64,000 nt of DNA from a virus (Duplodnaviria; Caudoviricetes): positions 128,001-192,000 of IMG/VR virus record IMGVR_UViG_3300028832_000095; one strand, given 5' to 3'. The position numbers and the translations under genes are program-made. The notes beneath the pieces were generated by a model, which saw nothing but the letters and a program-made list of their open reading frames with translations, was not told where the DNA came from and made no database searches. Of the stretch, positions 25,763 to 53,052 are shown piece by piece (within the stretch, counting starts at the first letter, position 1; every line of letters begins with the position of its first letter).

Positions 25763-25828
25763 CAATTAAACAGGAACAATTAACCATAGGATTCAAACTC
25801 CTCTGGTTAATTGTTTAGGAGTGATTGT

Positions 25829-26920
25829 ATGTTAAAAGTATCTAAGTTTATTCGTGACAACAATAATTGGGAAGAGTTGTTACGGTCTGATCCATACAAT
25901 GTATCAATTAAACATCAAAATAACCTCATTCTTCTTAATTATATTCAAGGAGCATCTACTGTTTGTGATATAACAAATGAGTGTAGAGGTCTTGTTCTTG
26001 ACATTGCAGATGAAAGAAATCCAAAAGTGGTTCGGTGTGGATTTTATAGATTCTTCAATCTTGGAGATCCTAATGCAGTTACTATTGGAAATCATATTAC
26101 AGCATATGAAAAAGTTGATGGATCACTTGTGTTCCTTTACTTTGTAAACGATAAATGGTGTTTTGGAACAAGAAATACATTTGATCTTGAAGTAGATGAA
26201 GTTACAGCCGGAAATACACCTAAACTTAGAAAAATGGCTAAACAGATTCGCAGTGTACTGAATCCAAACATTTTTGATTCCCTCAATAAGAACTTTACAT
26301 ACTGTTTTGAGTTTGTATCTCCTGATTTCCAAATTATTGTTCCTTATGAGAAACCGGATATGTATCTACTTATGATTAGGAATAATAATACATTGGAAGA
26401 GGTTGAAACTGCTATTTCTGTTGAATTCAAAAAGCCGAAAGTATATAGTCTTAATTCTATTTCTGAAATTGAAAAGTATGTATCTCAATTCTCGGCAACT
26501 GAGTTTGAGGGCATTGTTGTCAAAGACGAAAACAATAATCGTATTAAGATCAAAAACCTTAATTGGCTTCAACTTCACTATCTGTATAATAACGGTCAGT
26601 TTTCAGATAGATACTTTATTCATTTGTATATGAATGATGACTATCAGGAGCTTTTAAGTTATTTCACAAACCTGAAAGAACGGTTTAACAAGGTTGTGAA
26701 TAGATATAACACGATTAAAGAAGCTGCCAGATTGATGGATAATATTCCTGTTAATACTATTATGACTAAAAAACAATTCTTTGAACTTGTAGATAGAACA
26801 GTTAAAGACAAAGGTTTTCAAATGCTTGCTTTGAAGTCCTATAATAATTGTGCATATAACTGGTTTTGTATGTTAGATGAACATTGGTATTCACATTATT
26901 TTGTAGGAGAAGAAAGATGA
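25829..26920 (+). CDS. RNA ligase 1 (T4 RnlA-like)
   Basis: ECRGLVL, RFFN, EKVDGS (motif I), FEF, EGIVV, RIKIK. Confidence 0.88.
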   Translation: MLKVSKFIRDNNNWEELLRSDPYNVSIKHQNNLILLNYIQGASTVCDITNECRGLVLDIADERNPKVVRCGFYRFFNLGDPNAVTIGNHITAYEKVDGSLVFLYFVNDKWCFGTRNTFDLEVDEVTAGNTPKLRKMAKQIRSVLNPNIFDSLNKNFTYCFEFVSPDFQIIVPYEKPDMYLLMIRNNNTLEEVETAISVEFKKPKVYSLNSISEIEKYVSQFSATEFEGIVVKDENNNRIKIKNLNWLQLHYLYNNGQFSDRYFIHLYMNDDYQELLSYFTNLKERFNKVVNRYNTIKEAARLMDNIPVNTIMTKKQFFELVDRTVKDKGFQMLALKSYNNCAYNWFCMLDEHWYSHYFVGEER

Positions 26921-27840
26921 TTACTTTATTTATGACAATTGGACTTCCCGGTTCTGGAAAATCTCATTGGGCATCTGAACAGGATGCAAAAGTTGTATCT
27001 TCGGATGCTATCAGGGAAGAACTGTTTGGAGATGTAAATGATCAGAATTATAATAATGAAGTATTCAACGAAGTACATAACCGTATTCAGAACTACCTTA
27101 AACAGCGGTTTAATGTAGTTTATGATGCAACCAATCTCAGCAGTAAGAGAAGAAAAGGATTTCTTAATACTGTTCCTGAATTTGTAAGAAAGGTTGCTGT
27201 TGTATTCTGTACTGATTATAGTATTTGTCTTAAAAGAAATGCAGAAAGAGAAAGACACGTTCCGGAAGAAGTTATTGAACGTATGTATAAAAGAATCACT
27301 CTTCCTACACATTTAGAAGGATTCGATCAGATTGAATATATTTTCTGTCCGGAAAATGATAAAACAGAACTTGACTATTATCTTGAAACAGTTGGTTATA
27401 ATCAGGATAATCCTCATCACAGTCTTACTCTTGACAAGCATCTTGAAAAAGCATATAATCTTGCTCATGAAAAAGGATCTGACCTTAATGATTATGATAA
27501 AGAAATTCTTTGTAGGGCTGCTTTGATGCATGATGTTGGAAAGCCTGTTTGTAAAACATATGAACTTTTCTCCGGAAAAGTAGATGATCATGCACACTAT
27601 TATAATCATGCTAATGTAGGAGCATATAAGATTCTTTGTTCAAGACCTATTATTTTTGGGTTAGATAAAATTCATAATAGAATGGAAAGACAGAAATTAG
27701 TCGCTATTGCTACACTTATTCAGTTACATATGAACTTCTTTGACAGCAACTTCTCACTTAATGAATATAGAAAATACTACGAAAATAACCTCATTACACT
27801 CCTTGAAATTTTACATGAGTGTGATGTAGAAGCGCATTAA
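26917..27840 (+). CDS. Polynucleotide kinase (P-loop) fused to HD phosphohydrolase
   Basis: GLPGSGKS, SSDAIR, DATN, RN..R.R.VP; HH...H, MHDVGK, HANVGA, HM, D..AH. Confidence 0.85.
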   Translation: MITLFMTIGLPGSGKSHWASEQDAKVVSSDAIREELFGDVNDQNYNNEVFNEVHNRIQNYLKQRFNVVYDATNLSSKRRKGFLNTVPEFVRKVAVVFCTDYSICLKRNAERERHVPEEVIERMYKRITLPTHLEGFDQIEYIFCPENDKTELDYYLETVGYNQDNPHHSLTLDKHLEKAYNLAHEKGSDLNDYDKEILCRAALMHDVGKPVCKTYELFSGKVDDHAHYYNHANVGAYKILCSRPIIFGLDKIHNRMERQKLVAIATLIQLHMNFFDSNFSLNEYRKYYENNLITLLEILHECDVEAH

Positions 27841-27860: not shown

Positions 27861-28616
27861 ATGAAGAAAAAAATATTTATTCTTATTATGCAAATAACAA
27901 TTATTATATTGTTATTTGCTGTAACCGAAAAGAAAAACACTATCAAGAATGATTCAACAGCATCAATTGAAACAGTATTTATTGATACCTGTATATACGA
28001 AACTACGGCTTGGGTTTCTACCATATCAACTTATCCGGAAACAACTACCACAACTATACAGGAGACAAGCACAACCTCTGTTCCTGAAACCAATACAACG
28101 ATAACAAATACAGAAGGATCAACTAAAAAGACAACAAATACGACCACAAAAAGATATACTACTACTTCAAAAACTACCACAAAAATAACTACAACAAAAA
28201 CAACCACATCAACTACAAAAACAACTACTACCACAACACAGAAAAAAGAATCTAATAATATGGAGCTAGTTGGAACATTCAAACTAACATACTATATTCC
28301 TACATCAAAACAGAATCCAAATACTCTTGTTGGTGGATCAGGTAGGAAACTAATTGATTGTTCTATGGGTGATGGAACAGTAAAAGGATCTGTTGCTTGT
28401 CGCGCTGTGTACGAAAAATATGGATATAAATATAACGGAAAAAGAACTATGATATATTTGGATGTACCGAATTTCAAATATTTAACCGGATATTATTATG
28501 TAGACGATTGCTGTGGTGGAAAAGCAACTGTTGATATTTACTATAATTCTAAGAATAATTGTCCATTTAAGAATATCGGCGTTATTCGTGGGGCTAAGTG
28601 TTATATTGTTAAATAA
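27861..28616 (+). CDS. Membrane-anchored Thr-rich protein with 3D-like domain
   Basis: N-terminal TM, long Thr linker, GTFKLTYY...YYYVDDCCGG...VDIY. Confidence 0.6.
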   Translation: MKKKIFILIMQITIIILLFAVTEKKNTIKNDSTASIETVFIDTCIYETTAWVSTISTYPETTTTTIQETSTTSVPETNTTITNTEGSTKKTTNTTTKRYTTTSKTTTKITTTKTTTSTTKTTTTTTQKKESNNMELVGTFKLTYYIPTSKQNPNTLVGGSGRKLIDCSMGDGTVKGSVACRAVYEKYGYKYNGKRTMIYLDVPNFKYLTGYYYVDDCCGGKATVDIYYNSKNNCPFKNIGVIRGAKCYIVK

Positions 28617-31295: not shown

Positions 31296-32093
31296 ATGCT
31301 CTATGTTAGTTTAATTATCATTGGATTTCTTTTATGTGTTTGTATTTATTTAATATATCAACTTAAAGGATCTGGTTCAAAACATAACAATGATATGAAA
31401 GATCTTGATAATAGTTATGTGAAAAAACAAGAGCAACTTCAAAAAGACTTTGAATCTCGTGTAAATGATATAAATGCTAGATTTTATGAGATTCAACAAT
31501 CATATATACAAAAGGAACAATCTTATGATGTTGAGATACAAGATATATTATTTCGGCTAGAGAACTATAAAGAATTAGAAAATAAAGTTGTTGAAAAGTA
31601 TAAACAAAAAGAGATTGATGAGAAACAAAGAGATTTTTATAGAATCATCCTAGAAAAGTCTGATCTCTCTGATGTTGAAAAGTTAAATGCTTTTGCCCCA
31701 CAACTTTCAAAGCCAGTTGTATTGTATAAACTAATGTATGAGGTATATTACAAATCTAAATTGGAGGAACTATTTAAGAGGTTGATACCTAGTGATTGCA
31801 CATCTGGAGGAATATATAAAATAACAAATATAAAAAATAATAAATGCTATATTGGAAGAACAACTAATTTTCTAACTAGGTGGAGAGATCATGCTAAGTG
31901 TGGGATAGGTGCTGATTCCGGAGCGCAAGTAAGGAATAAGTTTTACGAAGCAATAAAAATGGATGGTATTGAAAATTTTACATTTGAAATTATTGATAGG
32001 TGTGAAAAAGATATTCAACCAGAACGAGAAAAATTTTGGATTGATTATTATAAATCTACAGAATATGGATATAATACAGTATCAGGAGGTTAA
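31296..32093 (+). CDS. Membrane-anchored GIY-YIG nuclease
   Basis: N-terminal TM, coiled coil, GIYKITN...CYIG...RW..H...FTFEII...E..WI...GYN. Confidence 0.82.
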   Translation: MLYVSLIIIGFLLCVCIYLIYQLKGSGSKHNNDMKDLDNSYVKKQEQLQKDFESRVNDINARFYEIQQSYIQKEQSYDVEIQDILFRLENYKELENKVVEKYKQKEIDEKQRDFYRIILEKSDLSDVEKLNAFAPQLSKPVVLYKLMYEVYYKSKLEELFKRLIPSDCTSGGIYKITNIKNNKCYIGRTTNFLTRWRDHAKCGIGADSGAQVRNKFYEAIKMDGIENFTFEIIDRCEKDIQPEREKFWIDYYKSTEYGYNTVSGG

Positions 32094-32098
32094 TATTT

Positions 32099-33136
32099 AT
32101 GAAAAGTGTGTTTAATAAATGCTTGGCAATTCTAGTGTCTATTTGTATGGTTCCTTTGTTTAAGATCCATGTTGAAGCAAAGATAATTGAACCAGAAGTT
32201 GTAAAAACAGAAAAATGGACTACTTCTTATTTTATTGATGATGATATGGAAACTCTTTATCCATATGTTCAATGTGAAGCAGATATTTATAACGATGGAA
32301 CGATTAAATTCTATATGTGGAATACACATGAGTGGAATGGTTTTACAACATATGAACATAATTTATGTATTTGCGGAACACATATTTTTTATGATGAAGA
32401 TTCTATACCGTATCAGTATTATTTTGGGAAACGTGATGATTCTGGTATTCATTTTGAACAAGGAATGCTGGACAATACAATTTTGGAAGACGGTATTGTA
32501 CCAAATGATATAAATAATGAAAAAGTAGTTAATTTGTTTTTGAATTCTTTTAGTTATAAACCGTGTTCTTATGAGTTAGAATTATATGATTGTCCTATAC
32601 CAGAGACAATAGGTGTTATAGGAAAGAAAGATTCATTTAAGACATTTCCTATATTTATTGATATGGTTAAAAATATTTCACTTCCGAAGTTTTCAGAATA
32701 TTATTCAACTAAAAATAATCCAATAGTAAGGTTTACGTTAAAACCAAAAACAGAACCTATAAAACAGTATGATTTTAAATTATATGGTCACGGTATCACG
32801 ATTACACCAGAACTTCTTTCTGGTAGTGTGATAGCTACTCCGGAGCCTTCCGAACAAGAAAAACGTATTGCAGAACTAGAAGAACAGAATAAAATACTAA
32901 TTGAACAGAATAATCAACTTGAAGCAGAGATTGATAGAATCAACGAAGAAAATAATCACCTAAGTTTTGAAAATGATAGACTTGAATATGAAGTAAAATC
33001 ATTAAAATCTCAGCTTGATTCGATTTTAGTCGGTGATCTAAACAGTGATGGATCAATTGACATCCTTGATGCCATTGTAATTCGTAGATTCCTAGCAGGA
33101 ACTATTGAAGAACTACCATATAAAGGAGGAGAATGA
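32099..33136 (+). CDS. Secreted protein with coiled coil and single C-terminal dockerin-type repeat
   Basis: Signal peptide ending VEA; coiled coil; GDLNSDGSIDILDAIVIRRFLAG. Confidence 0.75.
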   Translation: MKSVFNKCLAILVSICMVPLFKIHVEAKIIEPEVVKTEKWTTSYFIDDDMETLYPYVQCEADIYNDGTIKFYMWNTHEWNGFTTYEHNLCICGTHIFYDEDSIPYQYYFGKRDDSGIHFEQGMLDNTILEDGIVPNDINNEKVVNLFLNSFSYKPCSYELELYDCPIPETIGVIGKKDSFKTFPIFIDMVKNISLPKFSEYYSTKNNPIVRFTLKPKTEPIKQYDFKLYGHGITITPELLSGSVIATPEPSEQEKRIAELEEQNKILIEQNNQLEAEIDRINEENNHLSFENDRLEYEVKSLKSQLDSILVGDLNSDGSIDILDAIVIRRFLAGTIEELPYKGGE

Positions 33137-33771
33137 ATATGTCAACCATGTCAGAGTGGGCAAGAAGAGAAGTTGAGATTGCCTGTAAAAAAGAAGCACC
33201 TAACCGAAAAGAATGTGAGTGGGATTATGGTTGTTCATGTTATGAATCAGCCTTAAAAGCATTTGAATCTTTATGTGAAGATGGTCATAGTGGATATAGT
33301 TTTTCTGTTACAAGAAATATTCTTACAAGACTTATGAATCATTATCCACTTACTCCAATCAATGATGATGAAACATGGGGAGAGTCAGATCAGTGTGCAA
33401 GAATGTCCTCTCTTTTTCGGGAAACAGATGAAAATGGCAACATCTTATATTCAGATGTAGATAGAGTTATTTGTATTGATACAGAAGATGGATGTACTTT
33501 TACAAATGGATTCATTACACGGATGATTGATAAGATGTTTCCAATAAAAATGCCATATTATCCGAATGGAAAATATCATGTTGAAGTTGAACATCTTTCT
33601 ACTACAAATGATCCGGATAGTTTTGATACCATTATTATTCATTCTATTAAACATCCTGATGGACACACAACGAAAGATTTTATTGCATTCGCAGAAGATA
33701 CGGAAGGTAAATTACATAAAATTAGTGAGGAAGAGTTATTGGTTAGAAGAAAAATGGCAGAAATGAGGTGA
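33133..33771 (+). CDS. Conserved phage hypothetical protein
   Basis: WARREVEIA...DGHSG.S...PLTPI...QC.RMSSLF. Confidence 0.65.
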   Translation: MNMSTMSEWARREVEIACKKEAPNRKECEWDYGCSCYESALKAFESLCEDGHSGYSFSVTRNILTRLMNHYPLTPINDDETWGESDQCARMSSLFRETDENGNILYSDVDRVICIDTEDGCTFTNGFITRMIDKMFPIKMPYYPNGKYHVEVEHLSTTNDPDSFDTIIIHSIKHPDGHTTKDFIAFAEDTEGKLHKISEEELLVRRKMAEMR

Positions 33772-33937: not shown

Positions 33938-33970
33938 AAGTACCTGACAGATTAGTTAGGTACTTTACTT
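33938..33970 (+). terminator. Intrinsic terminator
   Basis: AAGTACCTGAC...GTTAGGTACTT + T-rich. Confidence 0.6.
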
Positions 33971-34069: not shown

Positions 34070-34098
34070 TTGACATTTCATAGATTTTGTGTTATACT
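34070..34098 (+). promoter_or_regulatory. sigmaA-type early promoter
   Basis: TTGACA-N17-TATACT. Confidence 0.85.
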
Positions 34099-51299: not shown

Positions 51300-51578
51300 T
51301 CAACATTCTCTAAACACATAAACAGGAATTCCATTTTTTGTTTTGTTGTCTACAAGCCACCATGTACTCTCGGATTCACCATCTGATTTTCCGTAACCGA
51401 AATACATATGATTATATTCATTTGTCTTTTTTACGGTTTCACAGAATAGTTTTTCTTTTGCAATGGATCTTGCTTTGTCAACAGAACAATAATCTTCCCT
51501 GATTGCACATAACATTCCTTTTTTGTCAGAGAACACCATAGCATTTACCTTTGATTTACTCATAGTTAAACCCTCCAA
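51300..51578 (-). CDS. Hypothetical protein (stand-alone minus-strand gene)
   Basis: Own promoter and GGAGG SD; probable start 51563. Confidence 0.65.
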   Translation of the reverse strand: MEGLTMSKSKVNAMVFSDKKGMLCAIREDYCSVDKARSIAKEKLFCETVKKTNEYNHMYFGYGKSDGESESTWWLVDNKTKNGIPVYVFREC

Positions 51579-51612
51579 ATATAATATAGTGGTAGATAAT
51601 ACCTACACATAT

Positions 51613-51641
51613 ATTATAACATATTTTATAGAAAATGTCAA
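51613..51641 (-). promoter_or_regulatory. sigmaA-type promoter (minus strand)
   Basis: TTGACA-N17-TATAAT on reverse strand. Confidence 0.8.
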
Positions 51642-51678
51642 TATGAAAATTAGATTTTTTGAAAGGGGTTGCTTCACA

Positions 51679-53052
51679 ATGGTAAAAGAATATCAATATG
51701 GAGATACAACTCAACTATCTGAGCATTTTAATGCAAAGGAATTTCAATGCAAATGTGGAAAACCACACAGCTTCTTTGTTTCGGAGGAACTTATTGCAAA
51801 TCTTGAAATTCTAAGATCAACACTTGACTGCCGAAATATTCATGTTTCAAGTGGTTTCCGCTGTCCGGAACATGATGTTGCTGTTGGCGGTAAGGGAAAT
51901 GGTAAACATACAAAAGGACTTGCTGCTGATGTTATTTGTTATGATAAAAATGGAAATCCTATTTCATCTAAACTTGTTAGCTGTAAAGCACAAGACATTG
52001 GATTTAAGGGAATTGCAAATATCACAAAATCATACACTTCTACTCATTTAGATATGCGTGAGGGCAAGAAGTGGTATGGTGATGAAACAAAAGGAACATC
52101 TTGGGCTTGCAATGATTTTTATGAATACTATGGTATTCCTAGGGATAATAGTGATGAGGATGATAATATGAGTGATACAACAAAACGTGGAATGGATATT
52201 TCTTATTGTCAAAAGAAAGTTACATGGAGTAAAGTTAAAGGAATTGATTTTGCTATCCTTCGTGCTGGATATGGAAGATATACAAATCAAAAGGACTCAA
52301 TGTTTGAGAGTCATTATGCAGGAGCAAAATCCGTAAATATTCCGGTAGGTGCTTATTGGTACTCATATGCTACAACACCGGAAGATGCTAAAAAAGAAGC
52401 AGATGCTTGTATTGAAGTTATTAAAGGTAAACAATTCGAGTATCCGATATGGTATGATATCGAAGAACAAAAACAGCTTGAAACAGGTAAAAAGAATGTT
52501 TCTGCTATCGTTCGTGCATTCTTAGAAAAAGTACAGAAAGCCGGATATTGGGTAGGAGTATATTCAATGGTAAGTGCCTTGAACAATTATGTTGAAGACG
52601 ATATCTTACAAAAATATTCTGTATGGGTAGCTCATGTCGGCGTTAAGAAACCTTCTTATTCAAAGCCTTATGGAATGTGGCAGTATTCATGGAAAGGTGT
52701 GGTTGATGGAATAACTGGTGACGTTGACATGGATTATGGATATGTTGACTACCCAACCATGATTAAGGAAAAGGGTCTTAATGGCTTTGGTACACCTACA
52801 GATGATACAGATGATAACAAATGTCCATACCCAGAACCTACAAAAGCAATTCGTGAAGGTGATACCGGAGACAGTGTTAAATGGTTACAATGGAATCTAA
52901 TATATCTTGGATATTTCAATGATGAAATAAATGGAATTTTTGATATCTTTACTCTTGGATCACTTCTTGCATATCAATTAAAGAATAATCTTGCCGTAGA
53001 CGGTGTATGTGGTTCTGCTACAAGAAGTTCAATTATAAGTCAAAGTAAATAA
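51679..53052 (+). CDS. Endolysin: peptidase M15 + GH25 muramidase + peptidoglycan-binding domain
   Basis: HFNAKEFQCKCG, SGFRC, H..GLAAD, HLD.R; GMDISYCQ, GAYWYSY, DIEE, WQYS..G.V.GI.GDVD; GD.G..VKWLQ...VDGVCG. Confidence 0.9.
   Translation: MVKEYQYGDTTQLSEHFNAKEFQCKCGKPHSFFVSEELIANLEILRSTLDCRNIHVSSGFRCPEHDVAVGGKGNGKHTKGLAADVICYDKNGNPISSKLVSCKAQDIGFKGIANITKSYTSTHLDMREGKKWYGDETKGTSWACNDFYEYYGIPRDNSDEDDNMSDTTKRGMDISYCQKKVTWSKVKGIDFAILRAGYGRYTNQKDSMFESHYAGAKSVNIPVGAYWYSYATTPEDAKKEADACIEVIKGKQFEYPIWYDIEEQKQLETGKKNVSAIVRAFLEKVQKAGYWVGVYSMVSALNNYVEDDILQKYSVWVAHVGVKKPSYSKPYGMWQYSWKGVVDGITGDVDMDYGYVDYPTMIKEKGLNGFGTPTDDTDDNKCPYPEPTKAIREGDTGDSVKWLQWNLIYLGYFNDEINGIFDIFTLGSLLAYQLKNNLAVDGVCGSATRSSIISQSK

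Follow-up and report, generated by a model that had tools for sequence, protein, structure and literature searches.

Genomic context of the half-dockerin gene

The window, i.e. the whole 64,000-nucleotide stretch of DNA analyzed here, is part of a 202-kb rumen-type phage record. On its plus strand, an open reading frame encodes a predicted protein of 345 amino acids that ends in a single dockerin repeat, with the following features at the locus:

31296..32093, plus strand: GIY-YIG nuclease gene, directly upstream, ending 5 nt from the ATG of the half-dockerin gene
32084..32089, plus strand: AGGAGG motif read from the sequence, a ribosome-binding site placed 9 nt 5' of the ATG
32099..33136, plus strand: half-dockerin gene
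33133..33771, plus strand: downstream gene for a Tad3-like Thoeris inhibitor (Pfam PF25185, 85 bits; phrog_24386)
33938..33965, plus strand: terminator-like hairpin whose 11-bp stem precedes a T run

The product of the upstream gene combines an N-terminal hydrophobic helix, a coiled coil and a GIY-YIG nuclease domain (Pfam GIY-YIG, 41.7 bits; PHROG homing-endonuclease families), and a GIY-YIG gene is also located immediately 5' of the half-dockerin family gene in the related phage L007. On the downstream side, the ATG of the Tad3-like gene and the TGA of the half-dockerin gene are merged in an ATGA overlap that can be read directly from the nucleotides, and the half-dockerin gene is predicted to be translationally coupled to this anti-Thoeris gene. 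The hairpin is the only terminator-like site between 30500 and 34500 and probably closes the operon; the half-dockerin and Tad3-like genes are probably carried on one transcript. Given this probable co-transcription, we read the half-dockerin gene as a phage-host interaction gene rather than a virion or lysis gene. The surrounding genes belong to nucleotide metabolism and anti-defense, and the tail genes are far off, at 45.7-51 kb. A blastn search of a phage database with a 6-kb query returned a single match, of 173 bp, which falls under the Tad3-like gene and comes from an unannotated human-gut phage.

Domain architecture of the predicted protein

The first-pass annotation, made from the sequence, had described a signal peptide, an unknown domain of about 220 residues, an ATPEPS linker, a coiled coil of about 55 residues and a single dockerin repeat starting at 33032. 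All of these parts were recovered, with the following boundaries, all on the plus strand:

32099..32179, plus strand: predicted Sec (SPase I) signal peptide, residues 1-27, with cleavage between VEA and K
32180..32362, plus strand: conserved N-terminal cargo block, residues 28-88 (KIIEPE...WNTHEWNGF)
32363..32725, plus strand: hypervariable cargo insert, residues 89-209, without conserved columns
32726..32821, plus strand: conserved C-terminal cargo block, residues 210-241, ending in YGHGITITPELLS
32822..32851, plus strand: linker, residues 242-251, with ATPEPS at 245-250, non-regular in the AlphaFold2 (AF2) model
32852..33028, plus strand: leucine zipper, residues 252-310, a single AF2 helix of about 7.4 heptads
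33029..33133, plus strand: single-repeat (half) dockerin, residues 311-345, with the Ca loop at D313-D324 and a helix at 322-332

The signal peptide has canonical Sec features, namely a basic n-region (MKSVFNK), a hydrophobic stretch (CLAILVSICMVPLF) and an AXA-type site (HVEA before the K), and AF2 places a helix at residues 2-17, inside this segment. The site is conserved in the protein family described below: of 121 members, 119 have Ala at position -1 and 120 a small residue at -3, and a K or R within the first ten residues is likewise found in 120.

The N-terminal cargo domain (residues 28-241, 214 aa) is mostly beta when folded alone with AF2 (pLDDT 79.5, pTM 0.80). Its first block is nearly invariant among 112-120 relatives and is modeled as beta strands with pLDDT 87-96, the insert has partly low pLDDT, and in the C-terminal block His231 never varies and Pro237 and Leu240 vary little or not at all. 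Among the members, the domain as a whole measures 163 to 256 aa, and some His, Glu and Cys residues are conserved. No fold match was recognizable: a Foldseek search of the PDB with the whole model produced no match, and a search of the PDB and BFVD with the cargo domain alone produced none at E <= 0.001. With VIA-align, the whole model matched unrelated coiled coils through its long helix alone, and the best match of the cargo domain, 8jx2_H (Z 5.0, rmsd 4.7 A over 127 residues), lies below the noise level of 7-8; such sub-noise matches were to beta-sandwich domains of the alpha-hemolysin/leukocidin and adhesin types. Scores in the ESM Atlas did not exceed 0.85. On the basis of these searches, we make no claim of a particular fold or of a toxin. 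Searches of PHROGs and NCBIfam with the protein yielded coiled-coil noise only, and a match to an Rz-like spanin (E 0.011) was rejected, being confined to the heptads in a phage whose likely host is Gram-positive.

The linker has an equivalent in the relatives (A/TxPxLTEQE) and leads into a continuous helix of 59 residues (pLDDT 89-98 over 251-300 and 86 over 301-310). The heptad positions of this helix are those of a leucine zipper, with I/N/N/I/N/N/V/L at a and L/L/L/I/L/L/L/I at d; Pfam reports weak matches to bZIP_1, bZIP_2 and HALZ, and a zipper with Asn at a is retained in 92 of the 94 relatives scored. Asn at a combined with Leu at d, as with Asn16 of GCN4, favors parallel dimers, and Asn at a disfavors trimers. 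Accordingly, by its sequence the phage zipper looks like a parallel dimer, the oligomeric state being predicted from heptad rules. The parallel dimeric zippers of bZIP proteins and GCN4 are alike in Leu at d, Asn at a and a length of 4-8 heptads; however, the likeness is one of heptad pattern only, and the phage protein has no basic DNA-binding region and is predicted to be extracellular.

Long coiled coils are also common in phage fibers, and the protein could be imagined as a trimeric virion fiber or decoration protein whose signal-like start serves as a membrane or assembly anchor; a match to the neck domain of a lactococcal receptor-binding protein was obtained at chance level (E 0.12). 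We consider this highly improbable in view of the canonical, conserved SPase I site, the Asn residues at a, the position of the gene remote from the tail genes and the stand-alone copies in bacterial chromosomes (see below).

A single dockerin repeat at the C-terminus

The repeat, GDLNSDGSIDILDAIVIRRFLAG, occupies residues 312-334, with the first base of codon 312 at nucleotide 33032. Read from the sequence, D313, N315, D317 and D324 supply the Ca ligands of loop positions 1, 3, 5 and 12; in the AF2 model, helical structure stops at residue 332, and the 12-residue tail ends in LPYKGGE. In the comparison with Pfam Dockerin_1 (PF00404), which had been proposed as a check, residues 312-333 align to profile positions 2-23 of 57 and the protein scores 20.8 bits against a gathering cut-off of 22.9, about the score attainable by half a domain. 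When the complete 202-kb record was scanned in six frames, the half-dockerin was the sole Dockerin_1 match (E 2.2e-5; positions 2-24 of 57), at 22.8 bits, or 23.3 when neighboring in-frame matches are counted. A second repeat was not found: the motif scan detects one loop, after which 21 residues remain.

Among solved dockerins, the last 46 residues are most similar to the type-I modules of Acetivibrio cellulolyticus ScaB (4UYP_B, E 1.6e-9) and Clostridium thermocellum CelS (1DAQ, E 1.6e-8), and the alignment with the latter runs along the second (C-terminal) repeat through the terminal LPYKxG; the same residues give E above 1 with troponin C. The match is more than chance, given the E value of 1.6e-9 and the retention of the single repeat in about 138 relatives. 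By these comparisons, the repeat is a true dockerin repeat, as the first-pass annotation had supposed, and not a generic EF-hand, and it is like the C-terminal one of the two repeats in clostridial type-I dockerins, with which it has in common the ligands 1, 3, 5 and 12, the helix and the LPYKxG terminus. Unlike canonical type-I dockerins, whose chain contains a tandem pair of repeats, each about 22 residues long, the phage protein has one.

Half-dockerins had been treated in the first-pass annotation as unprecedented, and this does not hold: reports of naturally occurring, functional dockerins with one repeat date from 2017 and 2025 (PMC5301203; PMC12270676). Known as group-2 dockerins of Ruminococcus flavefaciens, these modules recognize the cohesins ScaE and ScaH (Israeli-Ruimy et al., 2017; PMC5301203) with a modest affinity (Ka 1e6-1e7 per M), form both 1:1 and 2:1 complexes (PMC12270676), and have been seen as two copies of the R. 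flavefaciens FD-1 module RfDoc2 on one ScaE cohesin (PDB 9GVB; Duarte, 2025; PMC12270676). According to the 2025 paper, group 2, with five sequences from one bacterium, comprised the only functional natural truncated dockerins known (PMC12270676). The phage protein is similar to them in that it has a single Ca loop and a single putative cohesin-binding helix at the C-terminus and is predicted to be exported. In contrast to group 2, it has Ile322-Leu323 rather than Gly-Arg at recognition positions 10 and 11, ends in the LPYKGGE tail, and lacks a second C-terminal helix; its half-dockerin matches RfDoc2 (9GVB_B) only at E 0.17. Furthermore, the half follows a leucine zipper in the same chain, a feature that the relevant passages of PMC12270676 and PMC5301203 do not mention, and it is phage-encoded, whereas the published group-2 set as described there contains no phage sequences.

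A protein family with complementary anchors

The half-dockerin protein is one of about 140 members of a family in which zippers and repeats were tallied by motif count. About 138 members combine a zipper with one repeat, and two, P0138 and P0170, lack the zipper and carry a complete two-repeat dockerin (Pfam dockerin positions 1-56 and 2-57 of 57, respectively) that begins five residues past the same linker. By the same count, none of the approximately 140 members combines a zipper with two repeats. The nearest relatives of P0138 are zipper-plus-one-repeat proteins with the same repeat style, and the two-repeat, zipper-less form is known from a single lineage; a weak member, P0171, apparently has one repeat without a zipper. 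The occurrence of a full dockerin exactly where the zipper is missing suggests, at the level of motif patterns, that each anchor requires two repeats.

The anchors of this family are diverse. Recognition positions 10 and 11 differ between subfamilies (GR in 12 relatives, AR in 15), and some relatives have C-terminal tails of 27-33 residues. One member, P0086, has Gly-Arg at these positions and aligns over the whole 9GVB_B module (E 2.2e-12); by alignment, some family members, such as P0086, carry true group-2 dockerins. On the cargo-domain tree, dockerin type changes 16 times, compared to 38-41 times with shuffled labels. Thus, the anchor is mostly co-inherited with the cargo domain, and there is no strong case for anchor swapping. 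A search for other architectures, in which a zipper plus half-dockerin query was compared with longer proteins, produced one irrelevant match.

Distribution, transfer and the host

Apart from the present record, one other contig alone in IMG/VR carries the family, which is also represented in the related phages L007 and L005 at 32-38% identity. There are about 120 metagenomic relatives, several of them on contigs of 170-320 kb. The bacterial carriers are Ruminococcus sp. XPD3002, a Ruminococcus MAG and an Oscillospiraceae MAG; in the sample of 301 genomes of the Ruminococcus family, the one carrier is the query genome itself. One of the bacterial homologues lies between genes for dihydroorotate dehydrogenase and a histidine phosphatase, and two adjoin a transposase or a resolvase. 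The GC content of the phage gene equals that of the phage, while the bacterial copies are low-GC islands, 5-21 points below their flanks. This contrast, together with the transposase and resolvase neighbors, points to transfer towards bacteria.

These homologues in bacterial chromosomes would also be expected if the gene were a passenger, i.e. a bacterial surface protein gene recently acquired by the phage and without a role in infection. The retention of the gene in related phages at the identity given above, in L007 with synteny of the upstream gene, its phage-like GC content, the island character of the bacterial copies, the strong ribosome-binding site and the coupling to an anti-defense gene all argue against this scenario, which appears improbable.

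Cohesins are encoded in all three named bacterial carrier genomes, compared to 83 of the 301 genomes (28%) of that bacterial family, and none was found in the phage record itself. The named relatives of the phage endolysin come mostly from Oscillospiraceae and R. flavefaciens bins. The host, as far as sequence comparison can indicate, is probably a cohesin-bearing, Ruminococcus-like member of Oscillospiraceae.

The loop-helix might instead cap the coiled coil in a Ca-dependent manner or bind a partner other than a cohesin, as suggested for non-cellulosomal dockerin-like modules. The Pfam score below the gathering cut-off, the lack of a cohesin in the phage record and the limited share of cohesin-bearing genomes in the bacterial family are in line with this possibility. 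Nevertheless, the tail is close to cohesin-binding dockerins down to the terminal LPYKxG, part of the family has a group-2 module of the type for which cohesin binding is experimentally established, the named carriers all have cohesins, and positions 10 and 11 vary by subfamily as expected for partner specificity, so that a non-cohesin role is quite unlikely.

A possible mode of action

The explanation that we favor overall, with only slightly more confidence than doubt, is an exported surface-display protein of four modules in which zipper-paired halves fill one cohesin. The rebuilding of a dockerin from two coiled-coil-linked halves had been proposed in the first-pass annotation and finds partial support here. 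Under this scenario, the protein would be exported and cleaved between VEA and K, and two chains would join via the parallel zipper, which would set the two Ca-binding loop-helix halves side by side. We propose that, in this position, the halves together would fill the dockerin-binding face of one cohesin of a host surface scaffoldin, in an arrangement like that of the RfDoc2 pair bound to a single ScaE cohesin in 9GVB. Halves engineered from type-I dockerins, which can retain wild-type affinity (PMC12270676), also speak for this explanation. As a result, two copies of the variable domain would be held at the surface of the infected cell on a stalk of about 9 nm.

Several observations weigh against this explanation. 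The distance between the last zipper core residue and the first Ca ligand is three residues in the phage copy, compared to a family median of 6, and this spacer is tight for the antiparallel halves of 9GVB. In addition, the phage half differs in type from the group-2 modules with proven function, many engineered halves lost binding (PMC12270676), the zipper-less form with two repeats comes from a single lineage, P0171 apparently has one repeat and no zipper, and the phage record contains no cohesin.

The tight spacer is in line with an alternative in which each half acts singly, one per cohesin, and the zipper confers bivalency, either for avidity or for cross-linking of cohesins or scaffoldins. 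The 1:1 complexes of group-2 dockerins and the engineered type-I halves, some of which had wild-type affinity alone (PMC12270676), are compatible with this possibility, and avidity would help at the modest group-2 affinity (PMC5301203). Against it stands the family pattern, with a complete dockerin exactly where the zipper is absent. Moreover, EF-hand-type motifs generally need a partner motif to be stable. On balance, single-acting halves appear rather unlikely.

What paired display would achieve is much less certain. Superinfection is blocked at the cell surface by small exported phage proteins such as Llp of phage T5 and Ltp of the Streptococcus thermophilus phage TP-J34, which are lipid-anchored lipoproteins that target FhuA and the tape-measure protein, respectively. 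Like these, the half-dockerin protein is predicted to be exported, is encoded in a non-structural gene region and would be tethered outside the infected cell; unlike them, it would be anchored by a cohesin-dockerin contact, and it is not known to resemble them in sequence or fold. We suggest, very tentatively, that the displayed domain occupies or masks a surface component and thereby blocks superinfection or the loss of progeny on already infected cells. The broader proposal that phages of cellulosome-bearing rumen bacteria carry and spread split-dockerin display, loading their variable protein onto the cell-anchoring scaffoldin, displacing or masking cellulosome components used as phage receptors and effecting superinfection exclusion via the cellulosome, is to be regarded as doubtful; if it is true, an arms race would be recorded in the variability of the insert and in the shifts at the recognition positions.

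Implications

In the searchable literature, we found no description of a dockerin-tagged exported protein from a phage of cellulosome-producing bacteria. The approximately 140-member family, its group-2 members, its occurrence in phages and bacterial islands and the coupling to a Tad3-like gene are new here. With about 138 sequences added and diverse recognition residues among them, single-repeat dockerins appear to be much more common than reported. The family also suggests how they may work, namely as halves pre-paired by a zipper, with the zipper-less, full-dockerin members as a built-in control, and it would offer cellulosome engineers a natural two-chain dockerin design. If confirmed, these findings would mean that rumen phages plug into the cohesin-dockerin system of fiber degradation, and do so with a gene located beside an anti-defense gene.

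Domain organization of the phage protein

The window spans bases 128001-192000 of an IMG/VR virus record (201,895 bp, ~84% complete according to CheckV). GC content is ~32%, and almost all of the ORFs of at least 120 aa lie on the + strand; an NAD-dependent ligase, an endolysin and tail-fibre-like proteins are present among the marker genes, which confirms that the virus is a large tailed phage. The ORF analyzed here is open and is preceded by an AGGAGG site 9 nt 5' of the ATG. All the elements that the first-pass annotation had listed for it were recovered where that annotation had placed them, including the start of the C-terminal repeat at nucleotide 33032, which agrees with residue 312.

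32099-33136, +, complete ORF, 345 aa
residues 1-27, signal peptide, MKSVFNK / CLAILVSICMVPLF / HVEA, then K
residues 28-241, cargo domain
residues 245-250, linker ATPEPS
residues 252-310, single helix, confident in the predicted structure
residues 312-334 (from nucleotide 33032), dockerin repeat GDLNSDGSIDILDAIVIRRFLAG

The signal peptide is conserved across 121 relatives, with Ala at -1 in 119, a small residue at -3 in 120 and Lys or Arg among the first ten residues in 120, and in the matches to a cargo-domain profile the cargo always starts directly after it. Folded alone with AlphaFold2 (pLDDT 79.5, pTM 0.80), the cargo domain is mostly beta. An N-terminal block of ~62 residues (AKVIEPE...WNTHEWDGF) and a C-terminal block of ~30 residues (...GHDITITPELLS) are nearly invariant in the family, and the insert between them contains zero conserved columns, with the whole domain ranging from 163 to 256 aa. 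No known fold was recognized for this domain with Foldseek against PDB and BFVD (no match), in the ESM Atlas (nothing above 0.85) or with VIA-align, where the best alignment, to alpha-hemolysin-type caps (Z 5.0, rmsd 4.7 A over 127 aligned residues), lies below the noise level of 7-8 stated for this tool and Gram-positive adhesin domains rank next.

A single dockerin repeat behind a leucine zipper

The best Pfam family at the C-terminus is Dockerin_1; the match covers only positions 2-23 of 57 and scores 20.8 bits, versus a cut-off of 22.9. When the complete phage record was scanned in six frames, no dockerin match other than this repeat (E 2.2e-5, positions 2-24 of 57) was obtained, and no cohesin was found in the 201,895 bp. 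The last 46 residues match the solved dockerins of A. cellulolyticus ScaB (E 1.6e-9) and C. thermocellum CelS (E 1.6e-8), compared with an E above 1 for troponin C; because solved dockerins match and EF-hand proteins do not, the tail is a genuine dockerin repeat of clostridial type I rather than a generic EF-hand. In the CelS alignment, the tail pairs with the second repeat, including the final residues of the chain (IDTLPYKNG in CelS, IEELPYKGG in the phage protein); the repeat retained corresponds to a C-terminal one, and the first is absent.

In its best heptad register, the preceding helix has I/N/N/I/N/N/V/L at position a and L/L/L/I/L/L/L/I at position d, which is the pattern of a leucine zipper, and it gives weak Pfam matches to bZIP_1, bZIP_2 and HALZ. 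Leucine at d combined with asparagine at a favours parallel, in-register dimers, as in GCN4 and its variants. The core motif I-xx-L-xxx-N-xx-L of the zipper, in which Asn occupies an a position, is found in 92 of the 94 members scored, spanning a median of four heptads in the family versus 7.4 in the phage copy.

A zipper or a second repeat in the same position

Among 5.8 billion proteins searched, 120 relatives were found, 211-592 aa long and almost all without a name, and a profile of the cargo domain alone recovered just 85 cluster representatives among 1.84 billion proteins; the family is small and closed. Each complete member scanned ends in one dockerin-like repeat, which a tail of 18-55 residues follows. 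Positions 10/11, which recognize the cohesin, vary between subfamilies (VA 20, AR 15, GR 12, NA 10, AA 9, VE 8, and others) and are IL in the phage copy. Because the repeat type changes 16 times on the cargo-domain tree, versus 38-41 times with shuffled labels, the anchor is inherited mostly along with the cargo, with some switches. A metagenomic member of 448 aa (P0096) carries, after the zipper, a diverged second copy of the conserved cargo start that replaces the dockerin repeat.

P0138 (335 aa) and the fragment P0170, which are distant members of the family, are without a coiled coil and instead have a complete two-repeat dockerin five residues past the conserved PEML linker, with Pfam coverage of positions 1-56 of 57 (44.3 bits) and 2-57 of 57 (39.8 bits), respectively. 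A motif-based count gave 136 proteins with a zipper and one repeat, 2 with two repeats and no zipper, and two odd cases (P0148 and P0178); on inspection, both of the latter proved to be mis-scored by the motif and to have a zipper and one repeat each, bringing the tally to ~138 versus 2. No member of the counted family (~140) combines a zipper with two repeats. Because the nearest cargo-domain relatives of P0138 (P0132 and P0135, 36-37% identity) have a zipper and one repeat, of like repeat style, the family uses, at the identical position, either a zipper with one repeat or else two repeats, as expected if a zipper dimer of halves replaces a whole dockerin. The two-repeat form is confined to one lineage, and a weak member (P0171, E 1.4e-7) is an exception, with seemingly one repeat and no zipper.

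Relationship to natural truncated dockerins

The first-pass annotation had taken a half-dockerin to be unprecedented, which does not hold, given the published group-2 dockerins of Ruminococcus flavefaciens. According to the Results and Discussion portions of Duarte et al. (2025; PMC12270676), group-2 dockerins, to which five sequences were assigned, are the sole functional natural truncated dockerins known. In the solved complex with CohScaE (PDB 9GVB), each dockerin has a Ca loop, then one helix that binds the cohesin, a loop and a short helix at the C-terminus, and one cohesin holds two side-by-side dockerin copies that mimic a full dockerin; 1:1 complexes are reported as well, and among engineered type-I dockerin halves some kept wild-type affinity and others lost binding. 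In passages of PMC5301203 (2017), the group-2 dockerins of strain FD-1 are described as looking like truncated group-4 modules, and ScaE as attached to the cell envelope by a covalent bond. A leucine zipper ahead of the half-dockerin is mentioned neither in those portions nor in those passages.

One relative (P0086) matches the entire dockerin chain of that complex (9GVB_B, RfDoc2, residues 26-71; E 2.2e-12), Gly-Arg at positions 10/11 included, so part of the family carries the group-2 module itself. Compared with RfDoc2, the phage copy is of another type (E 0.17, Ile-Leu at 10/11, LPYKGGE end), and its model is without a second helix, unlike the group-2 module with its short C-terminal helix.

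Genomic context and distribution

25811-27840, +, RNA-ligase-like gene, then AAA_33 kinase and HD phosphohydrolase gene
27861-28616, +, exported-type protein
31296-32093, +, 265 aa, N-terminal hydrophobic helix, long coiled coil and C-terminal GIY-YIG nuclease domain
33133-33771, +, Tad3-like gene (Type I Thoeris inhibitor; Pfam PF25185, 85 bits; phrog_24386)
33938-33965, terminator-like hairpin
34070-34098, strong promoter-like site
51523-53052, +, three-module endolysin (M15 peptidase, GH25 muramidase, PG_binding_1)

The Tad3-like gene start overlaps the stop of the dockerin gene (ATGA), which makes translational coupling of the two probable. The gene upstream stops 5 nt short of the ATG and has a counterpart (47% identity) in synteny directly 5' of the family gene in a related phage (L007:9162-10001); a membrane-tethered nuclease would be odd for a homing endonuclease. 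Farther upstream are the RNA-ligase-like gene, the kinase/HD gene, which together resemble a T4 Rnl/Pnk-type pair for tRNA repair, and a guanylate kinase. The exported-type protein has a start resembling a signal peptide, then a long Thr-rich linker, and ends in a domain of ~110 aa; it has no Pfam or PHROG match. The region consists of metabolism and host-interaction genes and is distinct from the structural or lysis block, at 45.7-53 kb.

Related phages carry the family: L007 has five other proteins in common with this phage (24-60% identity), and L005, L013 and L014 have five or six. Among bacteria, the family gene adjoins a resolvase in a Ruminococcus MAG, is flanked by dihydroorotate dehydrogenase and histidine phosphatase in an Oscillospiraceae MAG, and lies beside an rve transposase and a dockerin ORF without cargo in Ruminococcus sp. 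XPD3002. The latter ORF (L004:1607-1954, 115 aa), between the transposase and the family gene, encodes hardly more than a dockerin with both of its repeats complete (Pfam 53.8 bits), perhaps what is left of a dockerin protein after its disruption. At all bacterial loci (L002, L003, L004, L010, L011) the gene lies 5-21 GC points under its flanks (for example, 46% versus 57-59% and 37% versus 53-57%), whereas at the phage loci (this one, L005 and L007) it matches its surroundings, which suggests that the bacterial copies came from low-GC elements, such as these phages or mobile elements; an unusual amino-acid composition could account for part of the gap.

Cohesins are encoded in all three carrier bacterial genomes (11, 1 and 16 matches), which is modest support because 83 of 301 sampled genomes of the same bacterial family (28%) have them anyway. 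At E <= 1e-20, the phage endolysin has over 2500 relatives, the majority without the C-terminal PG-binding module; named ones, labelled Oscillospiraceae (61% identity), R. flavefaciens (57%) and, in one case, Alistipes, are a weak clue to the host because the labels come from MAG bins.

Proposed mode of action and significance

The modular anatomy, the identity of the single dockerin repeat, the zipper heptad, the conserved layout and the zipper-less two-repeat alternative are established, confirming the original observation; its interpretation is partly supported. On balance, we lean towards a scenario in which the protein would be exported and its signal peptide cleaved, two chains would dimerise via the zipper, and the paired halves would jointly fill, as in 9GVB, one cohesin of a scaffoldin on the cell surface, displaying the variable cargo domains of both chains on a ~9-nm stalk (59 residues x 1.5 A). 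The spacer between the last zipper core residue and the first Ca ligand, three residues in the phage copy versus a family median of six, speaks somewhat for the main alternative, in which cohesin binding is retained, each half binds its own cohesin and the zipper adds avidity or cross-links scaffoldins; overall, we judge this arrangement unlikely. The displayed domain might occupy the anchoring cohesin or mask a surface receptor, as proposed at the outset, a rather doubtful role that nevertheless agrees with the hypervariable insert and with the anti-defence surroundings of the gene.

Dockerins of phages infecting cellulosome producers were not found in the literature searched, where the sole viral mention is a passing remark in PMC13452462 on dockerin domains in a contig, putatively viral, of ANME archaea. 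The principle of the half-dockerin has been published before; new, so far as the literature searched extends, are the coupling of a half-dockerin to a zipper, its spread over ~140 proteins whose recognition residues vary, the internal control that the family provides, and its presence in phages beside an anti-defence gene.
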